Assembly: GCA_043816785.1 (NCBI GenBank) | Contig: JBDRHP010000060.1 | Coordinates: 1 to 26,069, forward strand | Direction of reading: 5' to 3' | Origin: Candidatus Margulisiibacteriota bacterium | GTDB taxonomy: Bacteria; Margulisbacteria; WOR-1; O2-12-FULL-45-9 | DNA length: 26,069 nucleotides | In this document: positions 1 to 25,986 of the stretch, one piece after another | Layout of the letters: every line of letters begins with the position of its first letter | How positions within the stretch are numbered: the stretch's first letter is position 1 | Program-made: the position numbers and the translations under genes | Notes under the pieces: model-generated | Databases searched by the model: none | The model's input: the letters and a program-made list of their open reading frames with translations, nothing else | Told to the model about the DNA's origin: nothing

Positions 1-127
1 GCACCTAAAAGGAAAACAAGAATGGCTCATAAGCCCCAAATTAGCACAACAAATGGCATAGGAAAGACTCTGTCCATGAAACCGCGACGTTTAGTCGCAG
101 GTTTCATGAGTGTTATTGGACACCCTC
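1..127 (+). mobile_element. Right end of an IS1182-like insertion sequence (partial): end of an ORF, subterminal hairpin and right terminal inverted repeat GTTATTGGACACCCTC (112-127)
   Basis: 112-127 is the exact reverse complement of GAGGGTGTCCAATAAC (25931-25946), which precedes an IS1182-like transposase start. Frame 2 reads HLKGKQEWLISPKLAQQMA* (2-61), plausibly the transposase C-terminus. Confidence 0.7.
75..108 (+). repeat. Bulged hairpin repeat, right type (GTTTA loop)
   Basis: CATGAAACC-GCGAC-GTTTA-GTCGC-A-GGTTTCATG; core identical to the copies at 5355 and 8532. Confidence 0.9.
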
Positions 128-187
128 CTTTGGGAGAAGGGCATTAAATAGTAAATAAAGATTAAAGAATAAATTGGGATGAGGGCA
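128..187. repeat. Half of a palindromic repeat (CTTTGGGAGAAGGG...GGGATGAGGGCA), putative IS target
   Basis: Both motifs occur as reverse complements at 25883-25930 with a different spacer. Confidence 0.65.
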
Positions 188-207
188 GGGATTAACCCTC
201 AGAAGTA

Positions 208-1386
208 ATGTATAAATACCTCCAATCATTAGAAAAGTTTGGTATTAACCTTGGTTTAAAAAGAATCACGCATCTACTTGATAGACTAGAAAATCCTCAG
301 CTAAAATTCAAATCCATCCACATTGCTGGCACTAACGGTAAAGGTTCAACCGCGGCGATGACCGCTTCGATCTTAAAAGAGGCTGGCTATAAAGTAGGGC
401 TTTATACTTCGCCGCATATTCTTGATTATACTGAGCGGATTAAAATTAACGGTAAGGATATTTCCGGGAGTGAACTGGAAGAGGGGTTAAGAAGGGTTAA
501 GAGGGCCTCAGAGGGCTTGAAGAAGGGGAAGAAGGCTGAGCCAACAATATTCGAAGTTTTAACTGCTGTTGCGTTCTGGTATTTTGCTAAAAAGAAGGTT
601 GATGTTGCGGTGGTTGAAGTTGGGCTAGGGGGCAGGCTGGACGCGACCAATGTTTTGAATCCGCTGGTTTCAATCATTACTAATATTGATTTGGAGCATA
701 CAGAGGTCTTAGGTAGGACCCTGGCAAAGATTGCCAAAGAGAAAGCGGCGATCATTAAGCCAGCAGTTCCGGTGGTTACGGCTGAGACAAAGCCCGAGCC
801 ATTAAGAGTGATCCGAAAAGCCGCGGAAAAGGCTGGTTCTTTGCTGGTTCAGGCTAAAGGTTATGATTCAAAGACGATTCCTAACCTGGCTGGGGAGCAC
901 CAAAAGCTTAATGCCGCGTGTGCTGTTTCAGCAGTCAGGTTGGCCGGAATAAACGTCACCCGCAGCCAAATCGTGAATGGTTTGCGAAAAACTGAGTGGC
1001 CGGGACGCTTTCAAGTCATTTCCCGCAAACCCTTGATAATCATGGATGGCGCGCATAATCCAGCCGGGGCTAAGGCCCTCAAGGTGACGATTCAGCAGCG
1101 ATTCCCAGGCAAGTATACGGTCATCTATGGCTGTCAGAAGACCAAGGATTTTAAGAAGTTTTTGCAGGAGCTTAAGCCCATCATAGGCCAGCTTATCATC
1201 ACCTCTTCATCACATAACCAGGCAGCTGATCCCAGGGCCATTGCCCGCTGGGCAAATAGTCAAATGCCCGTTCATCTGGCTCACACAGTGGGTGTTGCTG
1301 TGCTTAGATGGGATGGGAAATCACCGCTGCTGATCACTGGGTCGCTCTATCTGGTAGCTGATGTATTCAAGTTGCTATCCGCCTAA
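208..1386 (+). CDS. folC: Folylpolyglutamate/dihydrofolate synthase
   Basis: HIAGTNGKGS, GLYTSPH, EVGLGGRLDATN, WPGR, DGAHN and TGSLYL motifs. Confidence 0.95.
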   Translation: MYKYLQSLEKFGINLGLKRITHLLDRLENPQLKFKSIHIAGTNGKGSTAAMTASILKEAGYKVGLYTSPHILDYTERIKINGKDISGSELEEGLRRVKRASEGLKKGKKAEPTIFEVLTAVAFWYFAKKKVDVAVVEVGLGGRLDATNVLNPLVSIITNIDLEHTEVLGRTLAKIAKEKAAIIKPAVPVVTAETKPEPLRVIRKAAEKAGSLLVQAKGYDSKTIPNLAGEHQKLNAACAVSAVRLAGINVTRSQIVNGLRKTEWPGRFQVISRKPLIIMDGAHNPAGAKALKVTIQQRFPGKYTVIYGCQKTKDFKKFLQELKPIIGQLIITSSSHNQAADPRAIARWANSQMPVHLAHTVGVAVLRWDGKSPLLITGSLYLVADVFKLLSA

Positions 1387-1424
1387 TTTTTCAGTATAAT
1401 TTCAAGAAAAGAAGGAGAAGTATT

Positions 1425-2783
1425 ATGTTTAAAAAATATGTTTTGCTTGTTTTGGTTTTGCTGCTTGGATTTGGATTTAGCTTGAGTGTGATAAACTGTG
1501 CCCAGGTGGTTGAGACATCAACCACTACCACAACTAGTTCTACTACAACAACAACTAGTGTGGCAAATTCATATAATGCAACATCGTTTTCTCTGGGAAG
1601 TAATGTGATTACTTCTGGAAGTCTTAGATCTACGGCTGCTACTGGTGCAAAAGCTTTAGCAGCTTATTCGGTAACTGGTCATGTATATGTTGCTGATTCT
1701 ACTACTCCAATTGAAAATGCCCAAGTTTGGGCTGGCACGACAATTCTTGCTACTACTGCGGCTGATGGCAGCTATACATTAAGTGGCGTGCCGGCTGGCG
1801 ATGTTGTTTTTTCAGCTTTTCCTCCTGACGATGGCAGTCATAACGGAGGTGCTGTGTCAGTAGTTACACAAGCTTCTAATATTGATTTTTATCTTTTTTA
1901 TGTTACTACAAGTGAAATTACATCCTACGGTAGTGTTAATGGCAGCATTACAGATAGCAATGGCAGCGCAGTAGACTCTGCATATGTAAAGATTATTTCT
2001 AAAAAATCCACCTTACCCCTGGCCATGGGCTACTCAACGCAGGCTGATGTTGCAGGAAATTATTCTAATCCTTATGTTTTGGATGGTAATGTTTATGTTG
2101 CATCTGGCAGGCTAGATCTTGGTAATGGTTATACAGCCGGAGGGTCACTTGCTAGTGGCGGCAGCCTTGCTGTTAATGTGCAAATTCCCAGTCAAGAAGG
2201 AACAATCGGTGGCAGCTTTGCTGTGCCTGCTGGCTTTTCATCGTGGGATCTGTCTCAAGGACCTGTAGCTGTTATGGTAGCTGATAATGTGGGATTGGCT
2301 TTGCCAACCTATGAAGTTACATCTTCAACATATAGTGTTCCTGTTCCGGCAAATACTGATTGCGCAGTGTATTTTAGTATTTATTCAACAGATTTTGTAA
2401 AGTATTCAGGAGCTGTGGTTTGTGGTCTGTCCGCTGCAACAGGCGAGTCAGTTACGCAAAATCTAACCTTATATGGTGAGCCTCAAAGCATAGCTTGTTC
2501 TACTGCTGAAGTTGGTGGTAATGTTGTGGCTACGATCACTTGGGAAGCACCAGCTTCCTGGACCCCTGATGTTTATTATGTGAAAGGTTTTATGCCAGCA
2601 ATTAATGGCTTTAACTGGTGGGGGGCGTTCACAGATCAACTCTCAATCGCAGTGCCTGGCAATATTATGCCAGGTGAGTATTGCATAGTTTATGGGCTTA
2701 AAACTTTAACCAGTGTTGATCTTGATGCTGTAGATATTTCAACTATTGATTTTAGCCATTATTCCGGGAGAAGTAATAGATAA
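1425..2783 (+). CDS. Putative lipoprotein with Thr-rich linker and beta-sandwich (carboxypeptidase regulatory-like) repeats
   Basis: AAGGAG RBS; signal peptide ending ..SVINC; poly-Thr stretch; VTGHVY..PIENAQV..DGSYTL and VNGSITD..VDSAYV..GNYS repeats. Confidence 0.7.
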   Translation: MFKKYVLLVLVLLLGFGFSLSVINCAQVVETSTTTTTSSTTTTTSVANSYNATSFSLGSNVITSGSLRSTAATGAKALAAYSVTGHVYVADSTTPIENAQVWAGTTILATTAADGSYTLSGVPAGDVVFSAFPPDDGSHNGGAVSVVTQASNIDFYLFYVTTSEITSYGSVNGSITDSNGSAVDSAYVKIISKKSTLPLAMGYSTQADVAGNYSNPYVLDGNVYVASGRLDLGNGYTAGGSLASGGSLAVNVQIPSQEGTIGGSFAVPAGFSSWDLSQGPVAVMVADNVGLALPTYEVTSSTYSVPVPANTDCAVYFSIYSTDFVKYSGAVVCGLSAATGESVTQNLTLYGEPQSIACSTAEVGGNVVATITWEAPASWTPDVYYVKGFMPAINGFNWWGAFTDQLSIAVPGNIMPGEYCIVYGLKTLTSVDLDAVDISTIDFSHYSGRSNR

Positions 2784-2786
2784 TAC

Positions 2787-3551
2787 ATGAAGGAAAAATT
2801 GCGCCTGGTCAGGACCCTTTTGGAAAAGCGTAATGCCAGGCGAAAAGAAGGTCGTTTTGTAGTTGAAGGTCCGCATCTGGTGGAGGAGGCGGTCGACCAA
2901 CTAGATTTTGTAATTTATTCTGAGCAGCTTCCACTGGTATCCAAGCTGGCAGACCTGGGCGTTGATTGTTATAAGGTTTCCAAAAAACAGTTTGCTGAAG
3001 TTTCAGACGTGGAAACGCCTCAGGGGATCCTGGCTGTTGTTAAGCAGCGGCAGTTTCAGCTGTCAGATCTTTTTAACTCGGTTGAGCCATTAATTGTTTT
3101 TTGTGTTGAAGTTCAGGACCCTGGGAATCTCGGGACAATAATTAGGACAGCGGATGCTGTTGGGGCGGCTGGTGTGGTGCTGGCAAAGGGCACGGTGGAT
3201 CTTTATAACAGCAAGGTGATCCGCTCGACTATGGGGTCGCTGTTTCATCTGCCGATCGTCATGGTTCCAGATACAGTCGCGGCTATTGAACAGCTTAAAA
3301 AGCAACTCGTCAGGCTTATTGCTGCGGATATATTGGGCAGCGATGATTATTTTGATGTTGATTACATTGGAAAAACTGCCATCCTGGTTGGTAATGAAGG
3401 CGCGGGATTGCCAACAAACATAACGGATCTTTGCGATCAAACTGTCAAGATCCCGATGCCTGGGCGTGCGGAATCATTGAATGTTGGGGTTTCCACTGCG
3501 GTAGTGCTTTACGAAGCCTTGAGACAGAGGATGCGCGGAAGATTTGGTTAA
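2787..3551 (+). CDS. TrmH/SpoU family RNA methyltransferase
   Basis: FVVEG, QDPGNLGTIIRTA, GNEGAGL and IPMPGRAESLNV SPOUT motifs. Confidence 0.93.
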   Translation: MKEKLRLVRTLLEKRNARRKEGRFVVEGPHLVEEAVDQLDFVIYSEQLPLVSKLADLGVDCYKVSKKQFAEVSDVETPQGILAVVKQRQFQLSDLFNSVEPLIVFCVEVQDPGNLGTIIRTADAVGAAGVVLAKGTVDLYNSKVIRSTMGSLFHLPIVMVPDTVAAIEQLKKQLVRLIAADILGSDDYFDVDYIGKTAILVGNEGAGLPTNITDLCDQTVKIPMPGRAESLNVGVSTAVVLYEALRQRMRGRFG

Positions 3552-3563
3552 ATATTGATAATT

Positions 3564-4286
3564 ATGAAACAACACGAAACAGCTGAAATCAGGAAAGCCT
3601 TCGCTTTTGAGGAAACAGATGACAATGCTCATTTGTCCTCTAAGTTGGGAATTCAGCGATATGTTATGATGGCTGATCAGATAAAGAAAATATTGGGCGA
3701 TGGAAGGATTTTGGATTGGGGCTGTGGCGCGGGACAGATGTCTTATCTATTAAAAAATCGCGGCCTGGACGTGACCAGCTGCGATATTAGACCGGGAAAC
3801 AGACCCTTGCTTGAAGGAATTGGGCAATCAGTGCAGCAATTGACCGACCAGGTTAAATTGCCTTTTACTGATGCATCTTTTGATGCGGTGCTGTCTTCGG
3901 GAGTACTAGAGCATGTAAATGACCAGTTTGCTTCGCTTAAAGAAATCTCCAGGATATTAAAAGACGGCGGCTACTTTTTTGTTTATATGCTGCCGAATAG
4001 ATATTCTTATGTTGAGTTTATTTCTGATCTTTTAGGACGTGGAGATCATCCGGTCAAATATTCTTTGAAAGAAATTCGCGGGATTGTTGAACAAACGGGC
4101 TTTGAGGTTTCAAGAATGGGGTATCAGAATTTTTTTCCCTATAATTTAAAAGGCTTTCCGAAAATATTAAGAAAGATCTATCACAGCTTTGATGGCCTGA
4201 TTGAAAAGCTGGATTCTCTATTTATCTTCTTGCCCCTCATCAGGAGACTGAGTACCAACCTTGTGGTTGTGGCGAGAAAGAAATAG
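3564..4286 (+). CDS. Class I SAM-dependent methyltransferase
   Basis: ILDWGCGAG, LPFTDASFDAV, LEHV, RILKDGG; ATG 3564 preferred over TTG 3555. Confidence 0.88.
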   Translation: MKQHETAEIRKAFAFEETDDNAHLSSKLGIQRYVMMADQIKKILGDGRILDWGCGAGQMSYLLKNRGLDVTSCDIRPGNRPLLEGIGQSVQQLTDQVKLPFTDASFDAVLSSGVLEHVNDQFASLKEISRILKDGGYFFVYMLPNRYSYVEFISDLLGRGDHPVKYSLKEIRGIVEQTGFEVSRMGYQNFFPYNLKGFPKILRKIYHSFDGLIEKLDSLFIFLPLIRRLSTNLVVVARKK

Positions 4287-4291
4287 GATGT

Positions 4292-5311
4292 ATGGAAGAT
4301 AGAATTAAACGAATAGAAAACGAAGCGCTCCAGGCCATAAATGGGGCAACGAGCCTTCATTCTCTTGAAGATGCTCGGGTCAGATATCTGGGCAAAAAAA
4401 GCGAATTCACACAGCTATTAAGGTCGCTGGGCACAATCCCGCCTGAAGAGCGGCCAAGGATGGGAGCTTTGATCAATGAGACCAAAGGCAAGATCGAACA
4501 AGCTCTGCGCCACAAGAAAATAGCCCTGTCGCAGAGCGAGCAGCAGAATAAGATCGCGGCCAACAGGTTAGATGTGACACTGCCGGGTCAGGGAATTAAA
4601 CGCGGCAAACTACATCCATTTACCAAGACTCTGGAAGAGGTCAAGCGGATTTTTCTTGGTTTGGGATATGAAGTTGCCGAAGGCCCAGAAGTTGAACTTG
4701 ATTATTACAATTTTGATGGATTAAACATTCCGCCGCATCATCCATCACGAGACGCTTTTTCAACATTATTTATAACGGATAAGGTTTTGCTCAGAACCCA
4801 TACCTCGCCGGTTCAGGTGCGCGTAATGGAAAAAAGAAAACCGCCGCTGGCCATTGTTGCCCCTGGCCGAGTTTATCGCCGCGATACTGCGGACGCGACC
4901 CATTCGCCGGTTTTTTATCAAATGGAGGGTTTTCTAGTTGATAAGAATATTACTTTTGGAGATCTCAAGGGCACGCTGACCGAGTTCTTGCGCCAAATGT
5001 TTGGCCGGGATAGAAAAGTTCGTTTTCGACCTAGTTTTTTCCCTTTTACTGAGCCGTCAGCTGAAGTTGATGTTGAATGTATCCTGTGTAATGGCCAAGG
5101 CTGCCGGGTCTGTAAAAATGCCGGCTGGCTGGAGATCCTGGGTTCGGGCATGATCGACCCCAATGTTTTTAAGGCTGTTGGTTATGATCCAGAAAAGTAT
5201 AGCGGCTTTGCTTTTGGCATGGGGATCGAGCGCATCCACATGCTTAAAACTGGGGTTGATAACATACGTTTGTATTATGAAAATGACTTAAGATTTCTGG
5301 AGCAATTCTAA
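4292..5311 (+). CDS. pheS: Phenylalanine--tRNA ligase alpha subunit
   Basis: LLRTHTSPVQ, YRRD, FRPSFFPFTEPS, GFAFGMGIER. Confidence 0.98.
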   Translation: MEDRIKRIENEALQAINGATSLHSLEDARVRYLGKKSEFTQLLRSLGTIPPEERPRMGALINETKGKIEQALRHKKIALSQSEQQNKIAANRLDVTLPGQGIKRGKLHPFTKTLEEVKRIFLGLGYEVAEGPEVELDYYNFDGLNIPPHHPSRDAFSTLFITDKVLLRTHTSPVQVRVMEKRKPPLAIVAPGRVYRRDTADATHSPVFYQMEGFLVDKNITFGDLKGTLTEFLRQMFGRDRKVRFRPSFFPFTEPSAEVDVECILCNGQGCRVCKNAGWLEILGSGMIDPNVFKAVGYDPEKYSGFAFGMGIERIHMLKTGVDNIRLYYENDLRFLEQF

Positions 5312-5316
5312 AATTC

Positions 5317-5348
5317 ATGGAGCCTGAGACTGAACGTCTCGGCTCCAT
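5317..5348 (-). repeat. Bulged hairpin repeat, left type (TGAAC loop on + strand)
   Basis: ATGGAGCC-T-GAGAC-TGAAC-GTCTC-GGCTCCAT. Confidence 0.88.
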
Positions 5349-5354
5349 AAGTGC

Positions 5355-5384
5355 AGGAACCGCGACGTTTAGTCGCAGGTTCCT
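5355..5384 (+). repeat. Bulged hairpin repeat, right type
   Basis: AGGAACC-GCGAC-GTTTA-GTCGC-A-GGTTCCT. Confidence 0.9.
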
Positions 5385-5399
5385 ATTAAGGGAGCAGAA

Positions 5400-7385
5400 A
5401 TGAAAGTTCCGATCAATTGGCTTAAAGAATTAGTGAGCATTAAGGCTAGTCCTGACCAACTGGCCCAAAGGTTGACTATGGCTGGGCTGGAAACGATAGT
5501 TGAGCCAGGCAATATTCTTGAGGTTGATATTATTCCGAACCGCTCTGATTGTTGGAGTGTGCGAGGAATTGCTCGTGAAGTTGCTGCCTTGACCAAGTCC
5601 AGCGTCAAAAGTCCCAAACCAAAACTAACGCAGATCAAAAAGAAAGCCAGCAGTGTGGTTGCGGTTGAGGTCAAAGATAAAGAGCTTTGCCCGCGCTATA
5701 TGGCGCGGGTGATCGAGAATGTGGCCGTAGGTCCTTCGCCTGACTGGCTGAAGAAGCGGTTAGAAAGTGTTGGCATCCGTTCGATAAATAATATTGTTGA
5801 TGTTACGAATTATATGCTGATCGAACTCGGCCAGCCCATGCACGCGTTTGACGCGGGTTTGATCGCAGATAACACGATCGTTGTGCGCCGGGCCAAAGCA
5901 GGGGAAAAGATCAAGGCCCTGGACGAAAATGAATATGAGCTTCGCCATGACATGCTGGTGATTGCTGATACACAAAAGGCGATTGCCATTGCCGGGATAA
6001 TGGGTGCGGCTAACAGTGAAGTCAGGAAAACAACCAAGACCATTGTGCTTGAGTCTGCCTACTTTGACCGGGTCTCGGTGCATAAGACTTCAAAATTTCT
6101 CAAGCTTAGATCAGAATCTTCAGTAAGATTTGAACGAGGTGTTGATTGGGTGGCAGTGGAAGAAGCCGTGGATCGCGCGGCAGCTATGATCGCCAAGCTG
6201 GGCCAGGGTAATGTCCTGGCCGGTAAGATCGATAAGAAGGCCAGGGAGCGAAAACCAAAAGTTATTACTTTGCGGCCAAATAAAGTAAACGAGCTCCTGG
6301 GGACAAATATTTCCAAAGCAGAAGCGGGAGGTATTTTAAAACGATTAGGTTTCAAGGTGTCCGGGAGCCAAGTTGCGATCCCGTTGTTTAGGGCGGCTGA
6401 TGTTTACCGCGAGATCGACCTGATCGAAGAGATCGCCAGGATTTATGGCTATAACAAAGTGGCAGCGACCATGCCTAATACTTCTTTTCCTGGTAAACAG
6501 ATCGATCTTAACGATATCTTCCATGACCAGGTCAGGCAGATAATGGCTGGCTGTGGTCTGAACGAAGTTTACACGGACAGCATGCTCGGTGCAAAAGATT
6601 TTGAACTGGCTGGCCTGGATTATTCTAAGGCTTTAAAGATCGAGAACCCCTTGATCGTTGACCAGAGCTATCTGCGCACCATGATGATCCCCAGTCTCCT
6701 AAAAGTGATCCAACACAATTTGCACCGTCAGATGGAGAATGTGTTTGTTTTTGAGGTTGGCAAGGTTTTCTTGCCAACTGAGCAAAAGCTGCCAAAAGAA
6801 AAGTGGATACTTTGTGTCGCGGCCACTGGTTCGCCGTTTATCAGCGCCATTGATAAAGGGCAGGTTGATTATTCCTACCTCAAAGGCATCATTGAAAATC
6901 TGTTCTTGGCCTTGGGTCTGACTGGAGTTAAATTTGCAGAAGCTAATAACCATTTACTGCAGCCGGGCAGGTCAGCAAATGTTTCCGGTCTGGGTATCAT
7001 TGGCGAGCTGCACTCAGGGATCGCCAAAAATTTCGGCTTTGAGAAACCGGTTTGTTTCTTTGAGATCGATCTTGATGCATTGTTTAAGCTGGCTGCTAAG
7101 CAGAAAAAGTATAAACCCCTGCCGAAGTTTCCCTCGGTGGCGCGAGATATTGCCATGTTCGTGCCTAAGGGGATCGAACACCAGATGATCGTTGACGTGA
7201 TCAGGCAAGTTGGCGGCAGCCTGGTTGAGGACGTTTTCCTGTTCGATAAGTACAAAGACAGTTTGGCTTACCGCATAGTTTACCGCGACCCGGCTAAAAC
7301 ACTGACCGACACAGAGGTTAATCCCAGACACGAGGAGATCGTTAAGACTGTTGAAGCAAAACTCAACGTTAGGATTAGAAGATAG
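5400..7385 (+). CDS. pheT: Phenylalanine--tRNA ligase beta subunit (short form lacking B2 domain)
   Basis: MKVPINWLKE, PNRSD, INNIVDVTNY, GQPMHAFD, DLIEEIARIYGY, FPSVARDIA; follows pheS. Confidence 0.96.
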   Translation: MKVPINWLKELVSIKASPDQLAQRLTMAGLETIVEPGNILEVDIIPNRSDCWSVRGIAREVAALTKSSVKSPKPKLTQIKKKASSVVAVEVKDKELCPRYMARVIENVAVGPSPDWLKKRLESVGIRSINNIVDVTNYMLIELGQPMHAFDAGLIADNTIVVRRAKAGEKIKALDENEYELRHDMLVIADTQKAIAIAGIMGAANSEVRKTTKTIVLESAYFDRVSVHKTSKFLKLRSESSVRFERGVDWVAVEEAVDRAAAMIAKLGQGNVLAGKIDKKARERKPKVITLRPNKVNELLGTNISKAEAGGILKRLGFKVSGSQVAIPLFRAADVYREIDLIEEIARIYGYNKVAATMPNTSFPGKQIDLNDIFHDQVRQIMAGCGLNEVYTDSMLGAKDFELAGLDYSKALKIENPLIVDQSYLRTMMIPSLLKVIQHNLHRQMENVFVFEVGKVFLPTEQKLPKEKWILCVAATGSPFISAIDKGQVDYSYLKGIIENLFLALGLTGVKFAEANNHLLQPGRSANVSGLGIIGELHSGIAKNFGFEKPVCFFEIDLDALFKLAAKQKKYKPLPKFPSVARDIAMFVPKGIEHQMIVDVIRQVGGSLVEDVFLFDKYKDSLAYRIVYRDPAKTLTDTEVNPRHEEIVKTVEAKLNVRIRR

Positions 7386-7403
7386 AGCCGCAGATAATTA
7401 TCG

Positions 7404-7429
7404 TAACCTGCGGCTGAACGCCGCGGTTA
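7404..7429 (-). repeat. Bulged hairpin repeat, left type
   Basis: TAACC-T-GCGGC-TGAAC-GCCGC-GGTTA. Confidence 0.85.
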
Positions 7430-7464
7430 GAAATAATAGCGAGGGTCACTCGCTGTAGCTATAT

Positions 7465-7511
7465 GAGTTGCGACGCCGCGCCTGCCAGCAGGCAGGGTTA
7501 GTCGCAGGCTC
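7465..7511 (+). repeat. Right-type hairpin interrupted by a 21-nt palindromic insert (7476-7496)
   Basis: GAGTT-GCGAC-G[CCGCGCCTGCCAGCAGGCAGG]GTTA-GTCGC-A-GGCTC. Confidence 0.8.
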
Positions 7512-7513
7512 CG

Positions 7514-7915
7514 GTGATGTTCATGTACTACCACTATATTTTCAGAACCTATAAGAAGAAATCTAGTCTGTTATTGCCTGAATTTAAGACAAAATTAGGC
7601 GGTGATTTTGTAAATATCGCTCAGGAAAAAGGCTTTAATCTCATTGCTCATGCGATTCTGGAGGATCATGTCCATATGTTGGTTAAACAGCTTGAGTCGG
7701 ACAAAACTGATTATGTCATGCGCATGTTTAAGGGTATATCTTCTCGAAGATTCTTTCAGGAATATCGATCGAATCCTTTTGAGCATTGTAAATTATAGGG
7801 GAGGGGCTATTATGCCCGTGTAATTACTGAAGAAGAGGTTCCAAAAGTGATAGAATATATAAAGAACCAGATTGGAGCCGATGGCTATGATAAAAGGCAT
7901 TCAACAATTAAATAA
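7514..7915 (+). pseudogene. tnpA: IS200/IS605-family Y1 tyrosine transposase with in-frame TAG at 7796-7798
   Basis: YHYIFRT, DHVHML (HUH) and FKGISSR motifs; the frame continues past TAG as KL*GRGYYARVITEEEVPKVIEYIKNQ... to TAA 7913-7915; TAG sits at the conserved Trp of LWxxxY. Confidence 0.88.
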
Positions 7916-7928
7916 TATTCAAAAGGAC

Positions 7929-7964
7929 AATTGGAACCGCGAGGTTTACTCGCAGGTTCCAATT
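7929..7964 (+). repeat. Bulged hairpin repeat, right type
   Basis: AATTGGAACC-GCGAG-GTTTA-CTCGC-A-GGTTCCAATT. Confidence 0.9.
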
Positions 7965-7976
7965 TGGTGAGTAATC

Positions 7977-10487
7977 ATGGCTGATCTGACCCCCATGGCA
8001 AAACAATATCTTTCCATCAAAGAAAAGCATCAGGATGCTATTCTCTTTTTCCGTTTGGGAGATTTCTACGAGATGTTCTATCAAGATGCTGAAGTCGCTT
8101 CAAAAGAGCTTGACCTGGTCCTGACTGGTCGGGGGAAAGATGACCACCGGATGCCGATGTGCGGCATTCCTTACCACGCTTCGCAAAATTATATTGCCCG
8201 TTTAATTGATAAAGGATACAAAGTAGCCATCTGCGAGCAGGTTGAGGACCTGCCTGCCGGCAGGCACGGCCCCAAAGAGGCTAAGGGAGTGGTGAAACGC
8301 GAAGTTGTCAGGATCGTTACCCCGGGAACGGTTATTGAAGCGCATCTTTTAGCAGAAAAAGCCAATAACTATTTGTTAGCCATTACCAGGGAGAAGAATA
8401 AATACGGCCTGGCATATGTTGATGCCTCAACCGGGGAGTTTAAGGTAACAGAGCTTGAAACCGAGGGAAAATTGTTGGATGAAGTTAACCGCATCAATCC
8501 TTCTGAGATTTTGCTGTCTGATATGATTCCGGAGGAACCGCGACGTTTAGTCGCAGGTTCCTCTACAGTTTCAGAATTTAAGGACACCTATGATTCTGAA
8601 GCTGCTGAAGAAAAACTTAAGCAATTTTTTAAAGTTAAGTCGCTTGATTCTTTCGGCCTAAACGCCGTGAAAACCAGCTGGGGAGCGGCAGCAGCTATCC
8701 TGGACTATCTTAAGGAAACGCAGAAGACCAGTTTGGACCAGATCAACCAGATCAAGCCCTATCAAACTTCTCATTTTATGTTTATTGACGCGGCCACCAG
8801 GCGCAATCTCGAGCTTGTCCAAACCATCAGAGACAAATCATACAAAGGCTGTTTGCTCTGGGTGCTGGACAGGACAAAGTCGTCGATGGGCGGACGTTTG
8901 CTGCGGCAATGGATACTGCAGCCGCTGCTTGACGCAGCACAGATCAATCAGCGTTTGGAGGCGGTTGAAGAGCTTTATAACAACGCGATACTGCGCGCTG
9001 AACTCGGGCAGGAGATCAACAATGTTTCGGATATTGAGCGGGTTGTTGGACGCATAGCTTCCGGCACTGCCAATGCCAGGGATTTGATCGCGCTTAAAGA
9101 TTCCTTGAGACTTTTGCCCAAACTTAAAAGCCTTATGTCTAAAGTCCAAAGTCAGCTGCTGCAGCAGCTGGGCCGGCTCCCAGATTTTACTGGGATTCTT
9201 GATCTGATAACCAGATCAGTTGTTGATGATCCGCCTTTTGCTTTAAAAGACGGCAACTTGATAAAACAAGGGTTTGAAGCTGAACTTGACCAGATCAAAG
9301 CCGCGGCTCGTGAAGGTAAGGCCTGGATCGCTCAGCTGGAGAATGAAGAAAGAAAACGCACCGGGATCAAATCGCTTAAAGTCGGTTTTACCAGGGTTTT
9401 TGGCTATTATATCGATATAACCAGATCAAACCTTTCTCAGGTGCCGGATAATTACATCAGAAAACAAACCTTAGTAAACAGTGAACGATTTATCACTCCC
9501 GAGCTCAAGGAAAAGGAATCACTGATCCTTAACGCAGATGAGCGCTTGAAGGAAATGGAGTACAAGGTTTTCTGCGATGTTCGCTCCAAAGTTGCTGAAC
9601 AAACTTCTGAACTGCAAAACCTGGCGTGGGTCCTGGCCCAAATTGATGTTTTGCTGTCTTTAGCTGAGGTCGCAGTTGAAAACCATTACAGCAGGCCAAA
9701 AATCCAAAAATCTAAATCCGGAATAAATATTATTGAATCAAGACATCCTGTAGTTGAAAAAGTGCTGGGAGAGCATCGGTTCGTTCCCAATAATGTTGAA
9801 ATGGATGAAGCAGCCGGGCGTTTCCTTTTGATCACCGGGCCTAACATGGCTGGAAAATCGACCTACATGCGTCAGGTGGCTCTTACTTGTTTGCTGGCCC
9901 AGATCGGATCTTTTGTCCCGGCAAAAGAAGCTGAGCTCTGCCTGGTTGACAGGATCTTTACCCGCATTGGCGCCATGGACGACATTTTCTCCGGCCAGTC
10001 AACTTTTATGATGGAAATGACCGAGACAGCCAATATCCTGAATAATGCAACTGACAAGAGCTTGATCATTCTTGATGAGATAGGGCGGGGGACTTCAACC
10101 TTTGATGGCATGTCGATCGCCGCGGCAGTGGCTGAATATATACATACTAAGATTGGAGCAAAGACTTTGTTTGCCACCCATTACCATGAGATCACCCAGT
10201 TAGTTGATAAGCATCCAGGCATGGAAAACCTGAATGTTCTGGTTAAGGAAGAGGGAGATCATGTAACTTTTCTGCACCAGATCGTTAAAGGGCCAGCGGA
10301 CCGGTCTTATGGGATCCAGGTGGGTAAACTTGCCGGTCTGCCTGCTGAAGTAATTAAAAGAGCCAAGGAGGTTTACTCAACTTTGGAAATGGTTGAAAGC
10401 GATCTGGGGAAAATTAAAAGCTCCAGGCCAAAGGCCAGAGGCCAAAAGGCCAAGGGTGCTGAACAGGAACAAGTTAGTTTATTTTAG
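7977..10487 (+). CDS. mutS: DNA mismatch repair protein MutS
   Basis: TPMAKQY, FRLGDFYEMF, TPGT, TGPNMAGKSTYMRQ, DEIGRGTST, FATHYHE, SYGIQV. Confidence 0.98.
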   Translation: MADLTPMAKQYLSIKEKHQDAILFFRLGDFYEMFYQDAEVASKELDLVLTGRGKDDHRMPMCGIPYHASQNYIARLIDKGYKVAICEQVEDLPAGRHGPKEAKGVVKREVVRIVTPGTVIEAHLLAEKANNYLLAITREKNKYGLAYVDASTGEFKVTELETEGKLLDEVNRINPSEILLSDMIPEEPRRLVAGSSTVSEFKDTYDSEAAEEKLKQFFKVKSLDSFGLNAVKTSWGAAAAILDYLKETQKTSLDQINQIKPYQTSHFMFIDAATRRNLELVQTIRDKSYKGCLLWVLDRTKSSMGGRLLRQWILQPLLDAAQINQRLEAVEELYNNAILRAELGQEINNVSDIERVVGRIASGTANARDLIALKDSLRLLPKLKSLMSKVQSQLLQQLGRLPDFTGILDLITRSVVDDPPFALKDGNLIKQGFEAELDQIKAAAREGKAWIAQLENEERKRTGIKSLKVGFTRVFGYYIDITRSNLSQVPDNYIRKQTLVNSERFITPELKEKESLILNADERLKEMEYKVFCDVRSKVAEQTSELQNLAWVLAQIDVLLSLAEVAVENHYSRPKIQKSKSGINIIESRHPVVEKVLGEHRFVPNNVEMDEAAGRFLLITGPNMAGKSTYMRQVALTCLLAQIGSFVPAKEAELCLVDRIFTRIGAMDDIFSGQSTFMMEMTETANILNNATDKSLIILDEIGRGTSTFDGMSIAAAVAEYIHTKIGAKTLFATHYHEITQLVDKHPGMENLNVLVKEEGDHVTFLHQIVKGPADRSYGIQVGKLAGLPAEVIKRAKEVYSTLEMVESDLGKIKSSRPKARGQKAKGAEQEQVSLF
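8249..8269. repeat. 21-nt palindromic mini-insertion in mutS (adds LPAGRHG)
   Basis: CCTGCCTGCCGGCAGGCACGG; removal restores EQVEDPKEAKG; reverse complement matches 7476-7496 at 19/21. Confidence 0.88.
8532..8563 (+). repeat. Right-type hairpin repeat in-frame within mutS (EEPRRLVAGSS)
   Basis: GAGGAACC-GCGAC-GTTTA-GTCGC-A-GGTTCCTC; 30 nt identical to 5355-5384. Confidence 0.92.
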
Positions 10488-10939: not shown

Positions 10940-11065
10940 ATGGCACTCGTTCAGCTAATTTTAGGGACTAGTATTATTGCCGCGGTGATCTTCTATTTCA
11001 TTAAACGCAGTAAAAAACTCAATGAGATGGAAATGGAAGAGCGCTTGAAGGATGAATATCGCTAA
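10940..11065 (+). CDS. Small (41 aa) single-pass membrane protein not in ORF track
   Basis: MALVQLILGTSIIAAVIFYFIKRSKKLNEMEMEERLKDEYR*; ATG immediately after the upstream stop. Confidence 0.6.
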   Translation: MALVQLILGTSIIAAVIFYFIKRSKKLNEMEMEERLKDEYR

Positions 11066-11451
11066 GGCCAGTCACCGATCCTGAGGCTTGCATAAAAATA
11101 ATCAATGATCTCTTGGTAAATATCAAAGAGCAGTTCAAAACCTCTGGTTGCCTCTGCTAATTGGGATCCGGATAGAGTAGTATAAAACGAGTCAACTCCT
11201 AAGCTAAGATATTCAATCAGCGCCAGCTGCCGGCTAAGCTCAGCCCCAATAAATCGCCGGCATTCTTTAGCAATTTCTGTGTTGCCTGTCTTTTTTGCCG
11301 TAACGGCTAGAATGGCCAGTTCCGCAAGATATTCCCAGGTATGGATCTCTTTTTCAACCACCAATTGATTGACACTGGTCCTAAGCTTCTCAAGCCCTAG
11401 GCGTAAGCTCCGGCCTGTTGGGCCCGTGGGAACAGGATAAGGCCTAAGCAA
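11062..11451 (-). CDS. Hypothetical protein (possibly C-terminal half of a frameshifted gene)
   Basis: 129 aa ORF with weak TTG start; frame open upstream to 11505. Confidence 0.45.
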   Translation of the reverse strand: MLRPYPVPTGPTGRSLRLGLEKLRTSVNQLVVEKEIHTWEYLAELAILAVTAKKTGNTEIAKECRRFIGAELSRQLALIEYLSLGVDSFYTTLSGSQLAEATRGFELLFDIYQEIIDYFYASLRIGDWP

Positions 11452-11459
11452 ACTGTTAG

Positions 11460-11678
11460 CTATTTTGTTGGAAATGTCAGCTGAAAAAGCTTCCGGGTAA
11501 AATTTTCAAAGTTAAGCCTTACGGTTTGCAGTATATTTGCCAGATGCTGGAGGTGTTTTAGGTTCCAGCCAAGCCTGGGTAAAGCTTGGTGCCTGCTTAA
11601 TCGGGCCATGGCAAAATGTTGCAGCGGCCGGTATTGAGCAGGTATGGTGTAGCTGGTTTCTGACCCGAGCATTTTCAT
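11460..11678 (-). CDS. Hypothetical protein (possibly N-terminal half of a frameshifted gene)
   Basis: 72 aa ORF starting 18 nt after the stop of 11697-12206. Confidence 0.4.
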   Translation of the reverse strand: MKMLGSETSYTIPAQYRPLQHFAMARLSRHQALPRLGWNLKHLQHLANILQTVRLNFENFTRKLFQLTFPTK

Positions 11679-11696
11679 GGTTCTATTGTCTTTTGA

Positions 11697-12206
11697 TCAA
11701 AATGAACCATATTTAATTCTTGGTCCTGTTAATAGACGATATAATTCAATCTTAACTTGAACAGCAGCTTTGGTTGTTAAGCTCATTGTTAAATAGCAGT
11801 GCAGATGTTTTTCATAGTTGTCATAGGATGAGAGCCAACCTGTTTGTTCAGTTTGAGGACGCCCATAAGTGGCTAGTTCGCGGATAGCGGCTCTGACTGC
11901 TTGAGAGATCAAGGCTTTAACCAGATCCTCGCGAATGAAGCTTGCGGTGTTTGTTAAGGTGAAGTCCACCTCTGAAAGATCTCTGGCTTGCAAAATAGCG
12001 GCAATTTGCGGGAAATCCTTGAAAAATTCGCTGAGTGAGACAACTCCACGGGGATTATCTTCGCGCCACGTTTGGCGCTCGCGTAATTTGTCTCTTATCG
12101 TATCAGAGAGGCGAGTAAGACCTTTTAAGTAAGTTGGACCGCGCCTAAACAGGATCTGCGCTGGTCTTTTCATCAAAGTGACTATTGGCATGATCATTTT
12201 ACTCAT
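11697..12206 (-). CDS. Hypothetical protein
   Basis: 169 aa ORF, GAGGA RBS and sigma28-like promoter upstream. Confidence 0.65.
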   Translation of the reverse strand: MSKMIMPIVTLMKRPAQILFRRGPTYLKGLTRLSDTIRDKLRERQTWREDNPRGVVSLSEFFKDFPQIAAILQARDLSEVDFTLTNTASFIREDLVKALISQAVRAAIRELATYGRPQTEQTGWLSSYDNYEKHLHCYLTMSLTTKAAVQVKIELYRLLTGPRIKYGSF

Positions 12207-12223
12207 GATAAATCCTCATACTT

Positions 12224-12251
12224 TTATCTGCAATAGGTCAAGATAATTTCA
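12224..12251 (-). promoter_or_regulatory. Sigma28-like promoter (leftward)
   Basis: Minus strand TGAAA-N15-GCAGATAA vs FliA consensus TAAA-N15-GCCGATAA. Confidence 0.55.
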
Positions 12252-12265
12252 GTTGATCTGTGAAA

Positions 12266-12293
12266 TGAAATATCCCCTCAAATCTTTCGATAT
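12266..12293 (+). promoter_or_regulatory. Sigma28-like promoter (rightward)
   Basis: TGAAA-N15-TTCGATAT. Confidence 0.45.
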
Positions 12294-12304
12294 ATATAGT
12301 AGGA

Positions 12305-13036
12305 ATGATTACACCTGTTAAACAAGTAAATATTCCCAGAACGTTGATCTTGACACATTTGCGTCAGGCTGAGCCTCACAATCTCAGATCGTGTACTAAG
12401 CTCTGGAATCTGACTGATCGCGCTTTTGGGGCAGAGGGGCCTTTTGCCAAGCGATTATCTTTGACAGAAGAGGGCAGTGATTTGCCAGCCGGGGTCAAGT
12501 TGGGGCCGTGGGACAATAAAGTTTTTTCTTGGACAGGCGCGATTGATGATGTTACCCCTCTTCCAAAATATCAGAAAATGAACCTGCCGCCGCCTGATTT
12601 TGTCTCAGCTTATGATCTTGGCTTTGCTCAGCCAGGGGAGCAGAGTTTTATCCTTGGCGGAGGCAACCTGGATTTTTGTATTTGGGAAACCTTTCAATCA
12701 CTGGTCAAGGTAAAACTTGAACAAGGAGAATCCTTTCAGGCGATTATTCCGCTGGCCATGGTTTACTGGTCAGACAGGTTAGGTAATCCATTTAAATATA
12801 TTGAGCAGCCGAACCGCTACACTAATTTTCTGGAACAGACACACGCAGCTGGGAAATTGAGCTCGTCTCAGGTTTTTATCGATGAACAGCTGGTGTTCAG
12901 TCGCTCGGGCAGCGGGCCAACTATTGAACTCCACTGGTTTACGGCCTTAAAAGGGATGTTTGCGTCGCCGTTCTTTCCTGAAACTAGCGAGCCAGCTTCT
13001 CTTAATCGAATGATCAGCTACTTTGCCCAACGTTGA
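12305..13036 (+). CDS. Hypothetical protein
   Basis: 243 aa ORF, no confidently recognised family. Confidence 0.65.
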   Translation: MITPVKQVNIPRTLILTHLRQAEPHNLRSCTKLWNLTDRAFGAEGPFAKRLSLTEEGSDLPAGVKLGPWDNKVFSWTGAIDDVTPLPKYQKMNLPPPDFVSAYDLGFAQPGEQSFILGGGNLDFCIWETFQSLVKVKLEQGESFQAIIPLAMVYWSDRLGNPFKYIEQPNRYTNFLEQTHAAGKLSSSQVFIDEQLVFSRSGSGPTIELHWFTALKGMFASPFFPETSEPASLNRMISYFAQR

Positions 13037-16164: not shown

Positions 16165-16203
16165 TTATTAATTTGGTATATTAGCTGATAAGGGAGATTG
16201 TAT

Positions 16204-17208
16204 ATGAGAAAATATATTTTATTCTTCATTATAATGTTGACCGGCAGCGTGTTGATTTTTGGTTGCACGACAACTTCTGTGGCTCCTACGACCACAACGA
16301 CTCCCGGTTCGACAACTACCACCACTGCCGGAGGAAGCGGGCCAACGGCTAAGCCGGATTCGACAGTCAGGCTATGTTTTATTCATCATTCCAGCGGAGG
16401 GAATTGGCTGGTAAACAGTTCCGATGATCCGACTGTTGGCGGGGACCTCGGCTTAAATTTGAACGCAAATAATTATTACGCAACAGAAACAGATTATGAC
16501 TGGGAAGCCCAGCCTGGGGATGCCTTGGGTTATAACACTGATCTTGGTTTCTGGACCGCCTGGTTTAATACAGCCAAGATGCCCTATGTCTACGCGAATA
16601 ATTCTCATTACTATTATACCAACACAATTAGTGATCCTGGCGGAGAAAACCAGATTGTAATATTTAAGTCGTGTTTTCCCAACAGCAACTTGTATGGCAA
16701 TCCGACTGACGCGGCTGCCACTGGCGCCACCAATCCTATTGAGGGACAAAATGCCGGGATTGGGGCTGGACAGTCCGCGGATTATACTGTGGCAAATGCC
16801 AAGTGGGTTTATAATACACTCCTGGCATATTTTGCCACAAAAACCAATAAGCTGTTTGTGGTTGTTACGGCACCTCCTTTAACTTCGGGCAATTACGCGG
16901 GATCTAACGCGGCAAATGCCAGGGCTTTTAATAATTGGCTGGTGAGCGATTGGTTGAGCGGTTATTCGCACAATAATGTGGTGGTGTTTGATTTCTTCAA
17001 TGTTTTAACCGGCGCGGATAATCATCATCGATGGTCTGTTAGCGCTGTGCAGCATTACACAGCTCCCGGGAGTTCCAATGCCGCGTATTATCCCACCGCT
17101 TCTGACGGAAGCGATGATCATCCCAATTCAAGCGGCAATCAAAAAGCGACCGCTGAATTTGTGCCGCTTTTAAATTATTATTACAATAGGTGGCAAGGTC
17201 TCATTTAA
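16204..17208 (+). CDS. Putative lipoprotein with Thr-rich linker and possible SGNH-like hydrolase domain
   Basis: Lipobox LIFGC, TTTTTPGSTTTTT, FIHHSSG, FKSCFP, VVTAPP, DDHP near the C-terminus. Confidence 0.65.
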   Translation: MRKYILFFIIMLTGSVLIFGCTTTSVAPTTTTTPGSTTTTTAGGSGPTAKPDSTVRLCFIHHSSGGNWLVNSSDDPTVGGDLGLNLNANNYYATETDYDWEAQPGDALGYNTDLGFWTAWFNTAKMPYVYANNSHYYYTNTISDPGGENQIVIFKSCFPNSNLYGNPTDAAATGATNPIEGQNAGIGAGQSADYTVANAKWVYNTLLAYFATKTNKLFVVVTAPPLTSGNYAGSNAANARAFNNWLVSDWLSGYSHNNVVVFDFFNVLTGADNHHRWSVSAVQHYTAPGSSNAAYYPTASDGSDDHPNSSGNQKATAEFVPLLNYYYNRWQGLI

Positions 17209-20246: not shown

Positions 20247-20252
20247 ACACTG

Positions 20253-21548: not shown

Positions 21549-21557
21549 TCCTCCAGA

Positions 21558-21683: not shown

Positions 21684-21751
21684 TACGCTTTCGAAATTAT
21701 TATTTTTGTGTTATCATTATAATCGTAATACATTAATTTGGGAGTGAATAA

Positions 21752-22711
21752 ATGAACAAATATCTTATTGCTTTCTTGGCCATTATTGTTACGGTTGTTG
21801 TTGGTTCAATAATAATTGTTGGTTGCCAGACAAATGTAACAACTGGAGATGTTACGACAACCTCAAGCACTACTACCACAACAGGGGCAGGCACTACTAC
21901 CACAACAGTAGCAGGCACTACTACCACAACAACTACCACCACTACGACAACCACGGTTTTGGGTATTTCCGGAACAATCACTGACTATGGAGGGGCTGAA
22001 CCCCAGCTTACGGTATTAGCTTTTTCTAATTGGGAAGATGACCCCACGGCGGAAACAAGTGCCAGCGTTTCCGGTACGCAAGCGAACTATAACTTAACCG
22101 TGGCAGCTCCTGGCAATTATTATGTTGTTGCTATTGACTTTGATCCGAATGGTGCCGGCGAACCTACTGTTGGCAGATACGCTGGTATATATGGCTATTC
22201 CGGGACTGACCCGATTGAGGCGGCGGGGAGTTCGGCAGCTTTGGTTCAGGTTGCTGCTGCCCAAGGTGCCTCAGTAACAGTTGCTTCAGTTGCCACGGCT
22301 AATTTTACCATGCATCCAATTATTGCTGGTACGCCTGACATCACTGGAACAGTTACTTGGACTACTGGGGAGGCCGGTTTAATTTTTGTGGGATTGATGA
22401 CAAGTGAAGCCGGTGAGGGGGGACCTGAAAATAGTGCTAGCGCAATCGTAGATGCCGGAACAACGACCTATGATTATTCTTTATCTGGCGTGTCAAATGG
22501 CACCTACTATATCCTTTCTATTTTGTATCCAGGAACCACAGAAGCAGGTGGTCCGCCACCTTCGGGGTCTCAGTGTGGAATATATTCTGATGGTTTACTT
22601 CCAGGGGCTTGGGGAGGATCTGGCACACCGCAGCCAGTTACTTTTGAAGGTACACCCTTAACTGGCCTTGATTTTCATTTAAATGATAGTTGGCCTGTTT
22701 TTGGGCCTTAA
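21752..22711 (+). CDS. Putative lipoprotein with long poly-Thr linker and two similar beta-sandwich domains
   Basis: GGGAG RBS; lipobox IIVGC; ISGTIT..PGNYYVVA..GIYG repeated as ITGTVT..NGTYYILS..GIYS. Confidence 0.75.
   Translation: MNKYLIAFLAIIVTVVVGSIIIVGCQTNVTTGDVTTTSSTTTTTGAGTTTTTVAGTTTTTTTTTTTTTVLGISGTITDYGGAEPQLTVLAFSNWEDDPTAETSASVSGTQANYNLTVAAPGNYYVVAIDFDPNGAGEPTVGRYAGIYGYSGTDPIEAAGSSAALVQVAAAQGASVTVASVATANFTMHPIIAGTPDITGTVTWTTGEAGLIFVGLMTSEAGEGGPENSASAIVDAGTTTYDYSLSGVSNGTYYILSILYPGTTEAGGPPPSGSQCGIYSDGLLPGAWGGSGTPQPVTFEGTPLTGLDFHLNDSWPVFGP
21867..21931 (+). repeat. Coding tandem repeat, 24-bp period
   Basis: GCACTACTACCACAACA at 21867, 21891 and 21915. Confidence 0.85.
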
Positions 22712-22736
22712 TCTCAAAAGGAAGCTTGATTTTTAG

Positions 22737-22764
22737 AAAAGGGAAGCGTTTTGCTTCCCTTTTT
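22737..22764 (+). terminator. Intrinsic terminator (possibly bidirectional)
   Basis: AAAA-GGGAAGC-GTTTT-GCTTCCC-TTTTT after the lipoprotein stop. Confidence 0.8.
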
Positions 22765-22846
22765 GTTTTATGGTAAAATCGTCCTGTTATCCCGCTTTAG
22801 CGGGATCCCGTAACACAAATTAATATAGAATAATAAGGAGAACGGG

Positions 22847-25061: not shown

Positions 25062-25869
25062 GAAGAAAGTCGAGCGTGCTTTGGCTAAGTATCTGCCGAA
25101 AAAGGGTAAATTAGCTTCTGCCATGCGTTATTCGGTTTTTGCCGGGGGAAAACGTTTTCGACCTTTTCTTTGCTTAGCAGCAGCCAGAGCGCTTGGAAAA
25201 AAATCAAAGTTAGTTTTGCCGCTTGCCTGTGCCATTGAGCTGATCCATACTTTTACCCTTATTCATGACGATCTGCCGGCAATGGATAACAGCGATTTCC
25301 GCAGAGGAAAACCGACTTGCCATAAAAAATATGGTGAAGCTACGGCAATCCTGGCAGGGGATGCCTTAAATACTTTGGCTTTCGAGGTCCTGGCCAAAGA
25401 GACAAAGAATTCCGTTGTTGTTTCAGAGATTGCCAATGCCTTGATGCAGGTTGTTATCGGTCAGGTAGCGGATATGGCCAGCGAAGGCAAAAAAATAAGC
25501 TTATCAGCCTTAAAATCGATCCATAAACAGAAAACCGCCGCACTGTTGCGGGCCTGTGTTCGCGCGACCGGTCAGTATTTAAAAGCGACGCCAAAACAGA
25601 TCAGGTCCCTGACCGCTTACGCAGAACATCTTGGCCTTGCCTTTCAGATCGCGGATGATATACTGGACGCTACTTCGACTCGGAAAAAAATAGGAAAACC
25701 GGTCAAAGCAGATATAAAAAAGGGTTTTCCTTATATAGTGGGATTGGAAAAATCTAGGAAGTTGGCTGAGCAGGAAAAGAAGAAAGCAATTGGCGTTTTA
25801 AGAATGTTTGGCAAAAAAGCTAATGCTTTAAGGGAAGTTGCTGAGTTTGTGGTTGATAGGAAGAAATAA
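25033..25869 (+). CDS. ispA: Polyprenyl (farnesyl/geranylgeranyl) diphosphate synthase
   Basis: [44 protein letters not shown]. Confidence 0.92.
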
Positions 25870-25882
25870 AGAGTGTTCCGAA

Positions 25883-25930
25883 TGCCCTCATCCCCGCTGG
25901 AGTAGAGGTCAACGCCCCCTTCTCCCAAAG
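25883..25930. repeat. Half of a palindromic repeat (TGCCCTCATCCC...CCCTTCTCCCAAAG), putative IS target
   Basis: Reverse-complement counterpart of 128-187. Confidence 0.65.
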
Positions 25931-25944
25931 GAGGGTGTCCAATA

Positions 25945-25986
25945 ACCTCAAGAAACCGGCGAATGAACTTCGCGGTTTCTTGAGGT
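25945..25986 (-). repeat. Bulged hairpin repeat, left type
   Basis: ACCTCAAGAAACC-G-GCGAA-TGAAC-TTCGC-GGTTTCTTGAGGT. Confidence 0.85.

Follow-up and report, generated by a model that had tools for sequence, protein, structure and literature searches.

A hairpin repeat family and a putatively domesticated IS200/IS605-type nuclease in Margulisbacteria: a candidate REPtron-like system

The locus considered here raises the question of what moves a short bulged hairpin that recurs beside quite different genes, namely at a pheS-pheT junction, around a tnpA gene for an IS200-type Y1 (HUH) nuclease, inside mutS and within the ends of an insertion sequence (IS) of the IS1182 family. The window, i.e., the whole stretch of 26,069 nucleotides analysed, corresponds to the entire contig C60 of the source genome, G000, a Candidatus Margulisiibacteriota bacterium. 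In the initial annotation, seven such hairpins, hereafter family A, were taken for the left and right ends of a TnpA-driven element, told apart by their loops and bracketing as cargo nothing, tnpA or the IS1182 transposase. The analysis rather points, with good probability, to a system akin to the REPtrons known for repetitive extragenic palindromes (REPs) and built on a domesticated IS200/IS605-type enzyme, which would cut and spread the hairpins.

Hairpins of the window and of the genome

All seven hairpins were recovered where they had been described, each with a 5-bp inner stem, a 5-nt loop and a 1-nt 3' bulge, and were predicted to fold as drawn (DNA z -4.8 to -10.7; 0 of 200 shuffles equally good). 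At the pheS-pheT junction, a left partner with loop GTTCA (5317..5348, minus strand) and a right partner with loop GTTTA (5355..5384, plus strand) form a doublet. A GTTCA copy stands upstream of tnpA (7404..7429, minus strand) and a GTTTA copy downstream (7929..7964, plus strand), while a single copy lies in frame inside mutS (8532..8563, plus strand), where it encodes the peptide EEPRRLVAGSS, MutS being confirmed by profile. The last two sit inside the right end (loop GTTTA; 75..108, plus strand) and the left end (loop GTTCA; 25945..25986, minus strand) of IS1182. Two further copies upstream of tnpA, both on the plus strand, had been missed, i.e., a degenerate one reduced to its inner stem with loop GGTCA (7439..7453; read by eye, similar decayed copies occurring at the orthologous site in G039) and one read from sequence, whose loop is split by a palindrome of another family, family C (7465..7512). 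This palindrome (7476-7497) recurs in frame in mutS (8249-8270) and has about 42 copies in the genome. Of the two loop types initially given, TGAAC and GTTTA, both are present, but TGAAC is the reverse complement of GTTCA, so that the two differ by one base only.

The REP-like density proposed for these hairpins held at the genome scale, since a consensus scan of the 1.53-Mb genome gave 124 matches versus 1, 0 and 0 in three shuffles; when split copies were also admitted, 125 family-A hairpins were counted, 19 of which are interrupted in the loop. Likewise, inverted pairing is the rule, with 43 of the 46 neighbours within 80 nt lying tail-to-tail (2 tandem, 1 head-to-head). The GTAG/GTGG or CGTC tetranucleotides are found at the foot of none of 115 copies, in line with the missing GTAG and CGTC tags already reported. 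Around 18 of 104 copies (e.g., C39:9320, C49:12975, C80:21917) represent a recurrent variant in which a pair of neighbouring G-A mismatches directly beneath the foot is closed off by additional pairs, reminiscent of sheared tandem GA pairs. As a separate observation, all 19 split copies (e.g., C10:13968, C16:4137, C102:787) are interrupted at one same loop point by a palindrome doublet of family B, 42 nt long or, in one case, 84 nt, and 18 of the 21 genomic family-B copies reside inside family A, i.e., a repeat parasitising another repeat.

Loop type is not independent of pairing, the loops differing between partners in 36 of the 43 doublets (p=4.5e-6), which is what distinct left and right ends would give. 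On the plus strand, the mixed doublets display both loop orders (20 and 16), which fits a single element lying either way round, and in the direction of transcription the C loop comes first in 14 of 22 doublets versus 8, which is not significant. The loop base, however, shows no linkage to any other variable site, whether the three in the stem or the foot (p 0.44-1; 115 copies, with repeated IS ends entered a single time), contrary to what fixed ends would entail. When partners are compared at four variable sites, they differ at two or more in all 43 doublets; none shows one difference or fewer, versus 15 expected, a figure as low never arising in 20,000 shuffles. The anticorrelation between partners is as marked for stem sites and stem extensions as for the loop base, and each stem, which shows compensatory pairs and sequence-variable extensions, carries on into the variable sequence on its own two sides (past the foot, 2.27 pairs versus 0.63 shuffled; 104 copies), pairing across partners beyond the foot amounting to 0.12. 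The rule for these hairpins is to avoid matching the inverted partner.

Because partners are mismatched at the variable sites, each hairpin is predicted to fold alone. Considering 27 unsplit doublets, two local hairpins were predicted in 52 of 54 strand folds as DNA and 45 of 54 as RNA, versus one long hairpin in 48 of 54 (DNA) and 54 of 54 (RNA) for controls with identical partners; the predicted folds thus depart from the single long hairpin of a strict REPIN (REP doublet forming a hairpin). At loci of other genomes, where the pairs include related copies of MITEs (miniature transposable elements with inverted repeats) and are not fully independent, 0 of 33 distinct inverted pairs are identical, 2 of 33 have a single difference versus 10.5 expected (p=0.0002) and the loops differ in 24 (p=0.009); same-orientation neighbours in these genomes are identical at the variable sites in 6 of 7 cases.

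The Y1 nuclease and its association with the hairpins

Five Y1 genes are present in genome G000, two of which are flanked by the family-A hairpin. These are the window gene (7514..7912, plus strand), broken by a TAG at 7796-7798, and an intact paralogue located at G000:C10:14427 downwards and 44% identical to it. No letter other than these appears at the TAG in the covering contigs, which come from one sample (runs X1 and X2) and from a further study (X4). The C10 enzyme passes the NCBIfam IS200/IS605 cut-off (69.1 vs 55) and fails the RAYT (REP-associated tyrosine transposase) profile NF047646 (48 bits vs a cut-off of 80), its best solved relatives being the TnpA proteins of ISDra2 and IS608. 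The three other Y1 genes (C16:17359-17676, C49:10273-10602, C99:6781-7116) score best as RAYT and have their own GTAG-type palindromes.

In 38 homologue sequences, the HUH (HVH), W, YxxxQ and C-terminal DK(R) motifs are invariant or shared; the C-terminus of this clade, hence called "DKR," reads Q..G.DKR, with no YxxxQxxHH tail. The group is compact, a search of 1.8 billion sequences giving 13 representatives with E values no higher than 1e-30, and in a quick tree it branches apart from the canonical IS200/605 and the RAYT-like rows, the HH-bearing (subclass 1.2-type) rows falling elsewhere. With the exception of two close paralogues in G021, the clade has one to two copies per genome, and its synteny extends across families, the gene following pheT in five genomes, as in the window, and preceding a TrmH-type gene in six. 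Near-identical copies at unrelated sites, by which an IS would be recognised, were not found, the two copies of G000 being 44% identical and syntenic in relatives. As such, the clade of the window gene is likely a domesticated IS200/IS605-type enzyme and not a RAYT.

Some features of these genes stand apart. Many of them (C10 tnpA, P0007, P0013, P0027, P0029) read through the downstream hairpin, which thus encodes the terminal peptide of their proteins; a tandem pair of Y1 domains is present in about 15 representatives, 270-315 aa long (P0059, P0061, P0062 and others). The same class also contains a sister clade of IS200-type Y1 genes (L033, L071, L072, L086, L087), which is flanked by perfect palindromes with TTYA loops, and a palindrome of this kind occupies the pheS-pheT junction in G039.

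The association with a Y1 TnpA, as initially proposed, holds across the class. Enzyme matches were obtained in 26 of 65 class genomes, one being a sister-clade gene, and the 30 enzyme loci returned comprise 29 clade loci and one sister-clade locus; a family hairpin lies within 250 nt at 29 of 29 clade loci but not at the sister-clade locus, the two enzyme matches of G054 also being of the sister clade with other palindromes. The nearest downstream hairpin is on the sense strand in 26 of the 29 clade loci, and the upstream one is inverted in 21 of the 24 having an upstream copy. The order C upstream and T downstream, observed at both tnpA genes and the IS1182 of G000, is the commonest at the homologues, with 9 of 19 loci in a hand count, but 4 loci are reversed and 6 bear the same type twice, so that 10 of 19 break the left-then-right order initially claimed. 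The hairpin pattern is present in 52 of the 65 genomes, with a median of 36.5 copies in the 26 genomes with an enzyme match versus 3 in the 39 without, kin not being independent, and hairpins outnumber clade genes about 60 to 1. The loop classes, namely GTTYA, ATTYA, TTTYA, TTYA, and GATAYT, follow the enzyme subclade, across host families too, with 6 changes on the enzyme tree versus 13.3 shuffled, a contrast inflated by kinship.

Beyond the class, a homologue from the Chloroflexota (Anaerolineae) exhibits the same inverted hairpin layout. Canonical IS200/605-like loci carry similar TTCA-loop hairpins, in L088 in direct orientation on one strand, and a close likeness to the TTYA-loop hairpin is seen in the right-end hairpin of an archaeal IS200/605-like locus (L089), which likewise follows tnpA immediately and on the sense strand. 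This likeness suggests that the family-A hairpin descends from an IS200/IS605 right-end hairpin.

Insertion sites, routes of spread and competing readings

The comparison with empty alleles called for in the initial annotation is clearest at the pheS-pheT junction, where, among 27 order-level loci (one duplicate left out), 22 are gapless, 2 hold a doublet with different stems and flanks, and 3 hold other inserts. Within long open reading frames (ORFs), 18 of the 22 hairpin clusters examined are well inside and in frame, in hosts which, besides MutS, we take from their sequence to be IleS, MetH, GltB, LeuS, Mfd, PcrA and so on. The hairpin segment is only 1-7 residues longer in MutS than in four relatives without a full copy, and 2 residues longer in GltB (one of five orthologous loci parsed); the same protein loops in relatives harbour independent doublets or unrelated repeat families. 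No target duplication emerged at the hairpin insertion sites. The orthologues show what appears to be replacement of local sequence and not clean insertion.

In the mechanism put forward, the enzyme would bind the hairpin on single-stranded DNA, then nick and rejoin through its tyrosine, thereby seeding and rewriting doublets at permissive sites; seeding would often replace local sequence and leave no target duplication. The ancestral right-end hairpin would now face outwards on both strands, and the C/T contrast of the loops would be one of several mismatches keeping the doublet from a long perfect palindrome, not a left/right mark. IS1182 would be a separate DDE element within whose ends a doublet-like pair has become lodged; in some relatives, IS1182-type MITEs would provide a second route of doublet spread. 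An enzyme exchanging stem and loop segments would explain why the variable sites are freely reassorted yet the partners mismatched, why the C and T loops trade sides among MITE copies that are otherwise near-identical, and why one point of the loop receives the insertions of other repeat families. A more detailed scenario, combining an independent IS200/IS605 domestication in Margulisbacteria with a relative in Chloroflexota, outward right-end-type hairpins, active segment exchange between partners and repeated capture in IS1182-type ends, is offered tentatively and is less likely than not; if true, it would give the doublets a two-enzyme (HUH plus DDE) route of spread.

Several observations weigh against a REPtron-like system driven by the clade enzyme. 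Five genomes with 19-61 hairpin copies gave no clade enzyme even by profile search, so that either the hairpins are maintained or propagated in its absence or the assemblies miss the gene. Support for the clade itself is moderate (SH-aLRT, an approximate likelihood ratio test, of 89 on 141 columns). No excision joint was seen in contigs from four runs over window 1-9200, contigs dropping rare variants, and the sequence beyond the foot of the 115 copies yielded no conserved guide or cleavage motif, the element boundaries being uncertain. As all 43 doublet spacers of G000 are different, doublets are not simply copied whole in this genome, and the favoured account does not explain where the DNA of spacers and flanks comes from. 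Finally, the recently multiplied doublets of G034 and G021 are found in MITEs bounded by terminal inverted repeats (TIRs) with 5-bp duplications, i.e., on a DDE route.

Regarding the spacers, a helical periodicity of their lengths (11-16, 20-30, 35 and 46 in G000) was considered and dropped, the spacers of G001 being continuous from 13 to 21. A spacer made as an inverted copy of the target suits some short spacers but fails at pheS-pheT, because the empty site has no intergenic DNA. Between a distant hairpin pair on C72 (1.8 kb), only ordinary host genes are found and no cargo.

The DDE elements themselves can be read at both ends of the window. On the one side, the 3' end of an IS1182-family transposase gene (1..61, plus strand), from a copy cut by the contig end, is identical to the DNA that ends a complete 497-aa gene in L066; beyond the hairpin follow the 16-bp right TIR (112..127, plus strand), the same at six contig ends with a different flank beyond, and half of the target hairpin (128..141, plus strand), which belongs to family D, a repeat linked to DUF559 genes. 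On the other side come half a family-D hairpin (25917..25930, plus strand), the 16-bp left TIR (25931..25946, plus strand) and the 5' end of the transposase gene (26009..26069, plus strand), probably from a different copy than 1-61, as the flanks at the two window ends do not share a direct 5-bp repeat. In G000, six left and six right ends break contigs and could not be paired, and the interior of the element is unassembled, a PF05598 search being empty. The complete copy in L066 combines the 497-aa transposase (NF033551, 393.5 bits vs a cut-off of 270), 16-bp TIRs outside the hairpins and a 5-bp duplication, its target being the loop of a family-D palindrome. An 82%-identical element in G046 likewise has two hairpins inside its TIRs, both GTTCA, with non-identical 5-bp flanks. 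Judging from these sequences, the IS1182 at the window ends is an ordinary DDE element whose own terminal repeats enclose the hairpins. With TIRs lying outside them, hairpins were rejected as the ends of IS1182, and the transposase as hairpin cargo is not supported, given also the 5-bp duplication. A window representing a circle closed by one IS copy was rejected as unlikely, the 5-bp flanks being reverse complements of each other and the left and right contig ends unpaired. The family-D palindrome (window 128-178 and 25883-25930) also flanks all three DUF559 genes (C102, C57, C5) and is the target of all 12 IS1182 ends.

In some relatives, a MITE with a different TIR carries the whole doublet (G034, G021, G023, G035), with 12 near-identical 133-bp copies in G034, a few of which are perhaps one site at two contig ends, and 8 related copies in G021; where both flanks are available, 17 of 21 loci show a 5-bp direct repeat. 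The best-surviving alternative, improbable as it is, holds that doublets are mainly passengers or decayed remnants of such IS1182-type MITEs, which a DDE transposase would spread, and sees in the Y1 gene just another holding site. Besides these multiplied copies, it draws on the same TIR lying near an IS1182-like ORF in G058 (partial and below the profile cut-off) and on the hairpin pairs held inside the TIRs of the window IS1182 and its G046 relative. Against it, this TIR occurs in 8 of 65 genomes versus 52 for the hairpin and is lacking in G000, where no outer inverted repeat surrounds the 43 doublets either (mean 7.58 vs 7.56 shuffled); the same shell carries an unrelated GTAG-type doublet in G036, and loop class tracks the Y1 enzyme. 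With the MITE absent from G000, DDE elements represent a second route elsewhere but do not explain the doublets of this genome.

Little better can be said of GTTCA and GTTTA copies as distinct left and right ends of a TnpA-driven element, which we hold to be slightly less probable still. To the mixing of loops in most doublets, the frequent C-then-T order around tnpA and the non-significant excess of C-first doublets are opposed the freely reassorting loop base, the equal anticorrelation of stems and extensions, and the many loci breaking the order. The two GTTCA ends in G046 and the IS1182 TIRs and target duplication argue the same way, as do seven G021 MITE copies with the same stems, which have C on either side, 6 of 7 being still mixed. 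In addition, the IS200/605 ends seen in L088 are direct repeats on one strand.

Hairpins acting as host RNA elements under selection, i.e., mRNA stabilisers or terminators and not mobile DNA, are the least probable of all, for although 27 of the 43 doublets sit between co-directional genes and the stems are compensatory with variable extensions, most of the clusters examined fall deep within reading frames, the corresponding sites in orthologues are vacant or taken up by other repeats, T-runs come after just 7 of 115 copies and an Rfam search of the window gave no match. An RNA role may exist as a secondary effect.

Elsewhere in the window, three predicted secreted or lipoprotein genes with Thr-rich linkers were observed (1425-2783, 16198-17208, 21752-22711), the first with weak matches to carboxypeptidase-regulatory-like domains, as well as three ORFs of 129, 169 and 243 aa without a Pfam match (11062-13036). 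Elsewhere in the genome, six small GIY-YIG genes occur on C55, C105, C2, C24, C77, and C33, at least four of them between a decayed and an intact tRNA-like sequence (by eye) and one among tandem palindromes.

Comparison with known systems

No published account of this enzyme and hairpin family, or of such repeats in these bacteria, was found in the accessible literature, which takes in few subscription papers and neither ISfinder nor supplements. REPtrons, which associate REPs, bacterial interspersed mosaic elements (BIMEs) or REPINs with a TnpA_REP RAYT (PMC8266576; PMC6006769), share with the present system an HUH-Y1 gene that is inherited vertically in few copies and has its own hairpins on either side, a repeat number above 100 per genome and inverted doublets with a variable linker, while Escherichia coli group 2 REPs share the bulged stem. 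They differ in the enzyme, here of IS200 type (DHVH, YxxxQ, ~130 aa, C-terminal DKR) where RAYTs have YxxNP, in the GTAG/GTGG foot, absent here, and in the long hairpin for which REPINs are named and which the present doublets are predicted to avoid. The published enzymes linked to REPs are mostly RAYTs, genomes with IS200 genes serving as a contrast group (10.1101/2021.07.10.451892), and the origin and spread of REP doublets are still open (PMC8266576).

For REPs, heterodimers are preferred over homodimers, SbcCD and palindrome avoidance having been offered as an explanation, and repair genes as well as tRNA synthetases are reported to contain in-frame copies (Di Nocera et al., 2013; PMC3733652). 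Both traits are shared here and, together with the domesticated IS200-like groups (PMC6006769; PMC5581495), were already known. Those REPs differ in being GTAG- or CGTC-tagged, the CGTC families lacking a flanked transposase, whereas the present hairpins are untagged and flank an IS200-type gene; moreover, avoidance is measured here site by site, stem extension included, which puts numbers on an unexplained heterodimer bias.

IS200/IS605 elements have derivatives known as PATEs (palindrome-associated transposable elements). With IS200/IS605 enzymes of TnpA_Y1 subclass 1.1, such as those of ISDra2 and IS608 (PMC6006769), the clade shares motifs and size, but its upstream hairpin is inverted instead of direct and its gene is syntenic, not duplicated; no tnpB was seen beside a clade gene. 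IS200-like proteins behaving as domesticated genes are also found in TnpA_Y1 subclass 1.2 and class 3 (PMC6006769) and in IS200 Group 3 (PMC5581495), class 3 and Group 3 being linked to abundant short repeats (Bertels et al., 2017; PMC6006769; PMC5581495). Subclass 1.2 possesses a YxxxQxxHH tail and a C-terminal domain that are absent here, and class 3 (PMC6006769, Table 1) a four-residue Y----Q spacing, a CnGA foot and a length of about 178 aa, none of which applies. In the accessible part of PMC6006769, the family-A hairpin is absent from the REP table. The present system thus has the lifestyle of a REPtron or BIME, yet fails the RAYT profile and lacks the GTAG tag, and has an IS200-type enzyme, yet lacks the same-strand ends and the near-identical scattered copies of an IS.

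IS1272 is assigned to the IS1182 family. It targets palindromes (PMC5678879), as does the IS1182 of the window by inserting into the family-D palindrome loop; the latter differs by the 5-bp duplication in L066 and by a REP-like pair inside its TIRs, which was not found described in the accessible literature.

Taken with these systems, the family-A hairpins and their enzyme would represent the same REP lifestyle on the IS200-type branch, and, as the hairpin still resembles an IS end, the ensemble looks like a snapshot of the proposed transition from IS to REPtron. That genes of this clade are annotated as mobile IS200/IS605 transposases serves as a warning for annotation. The system is unusually testable, as it offers an intact enzyme of ~130 conserved residues, a short substrate of which variants occur naturally, subclades that differ in their loops, and empty alleles.

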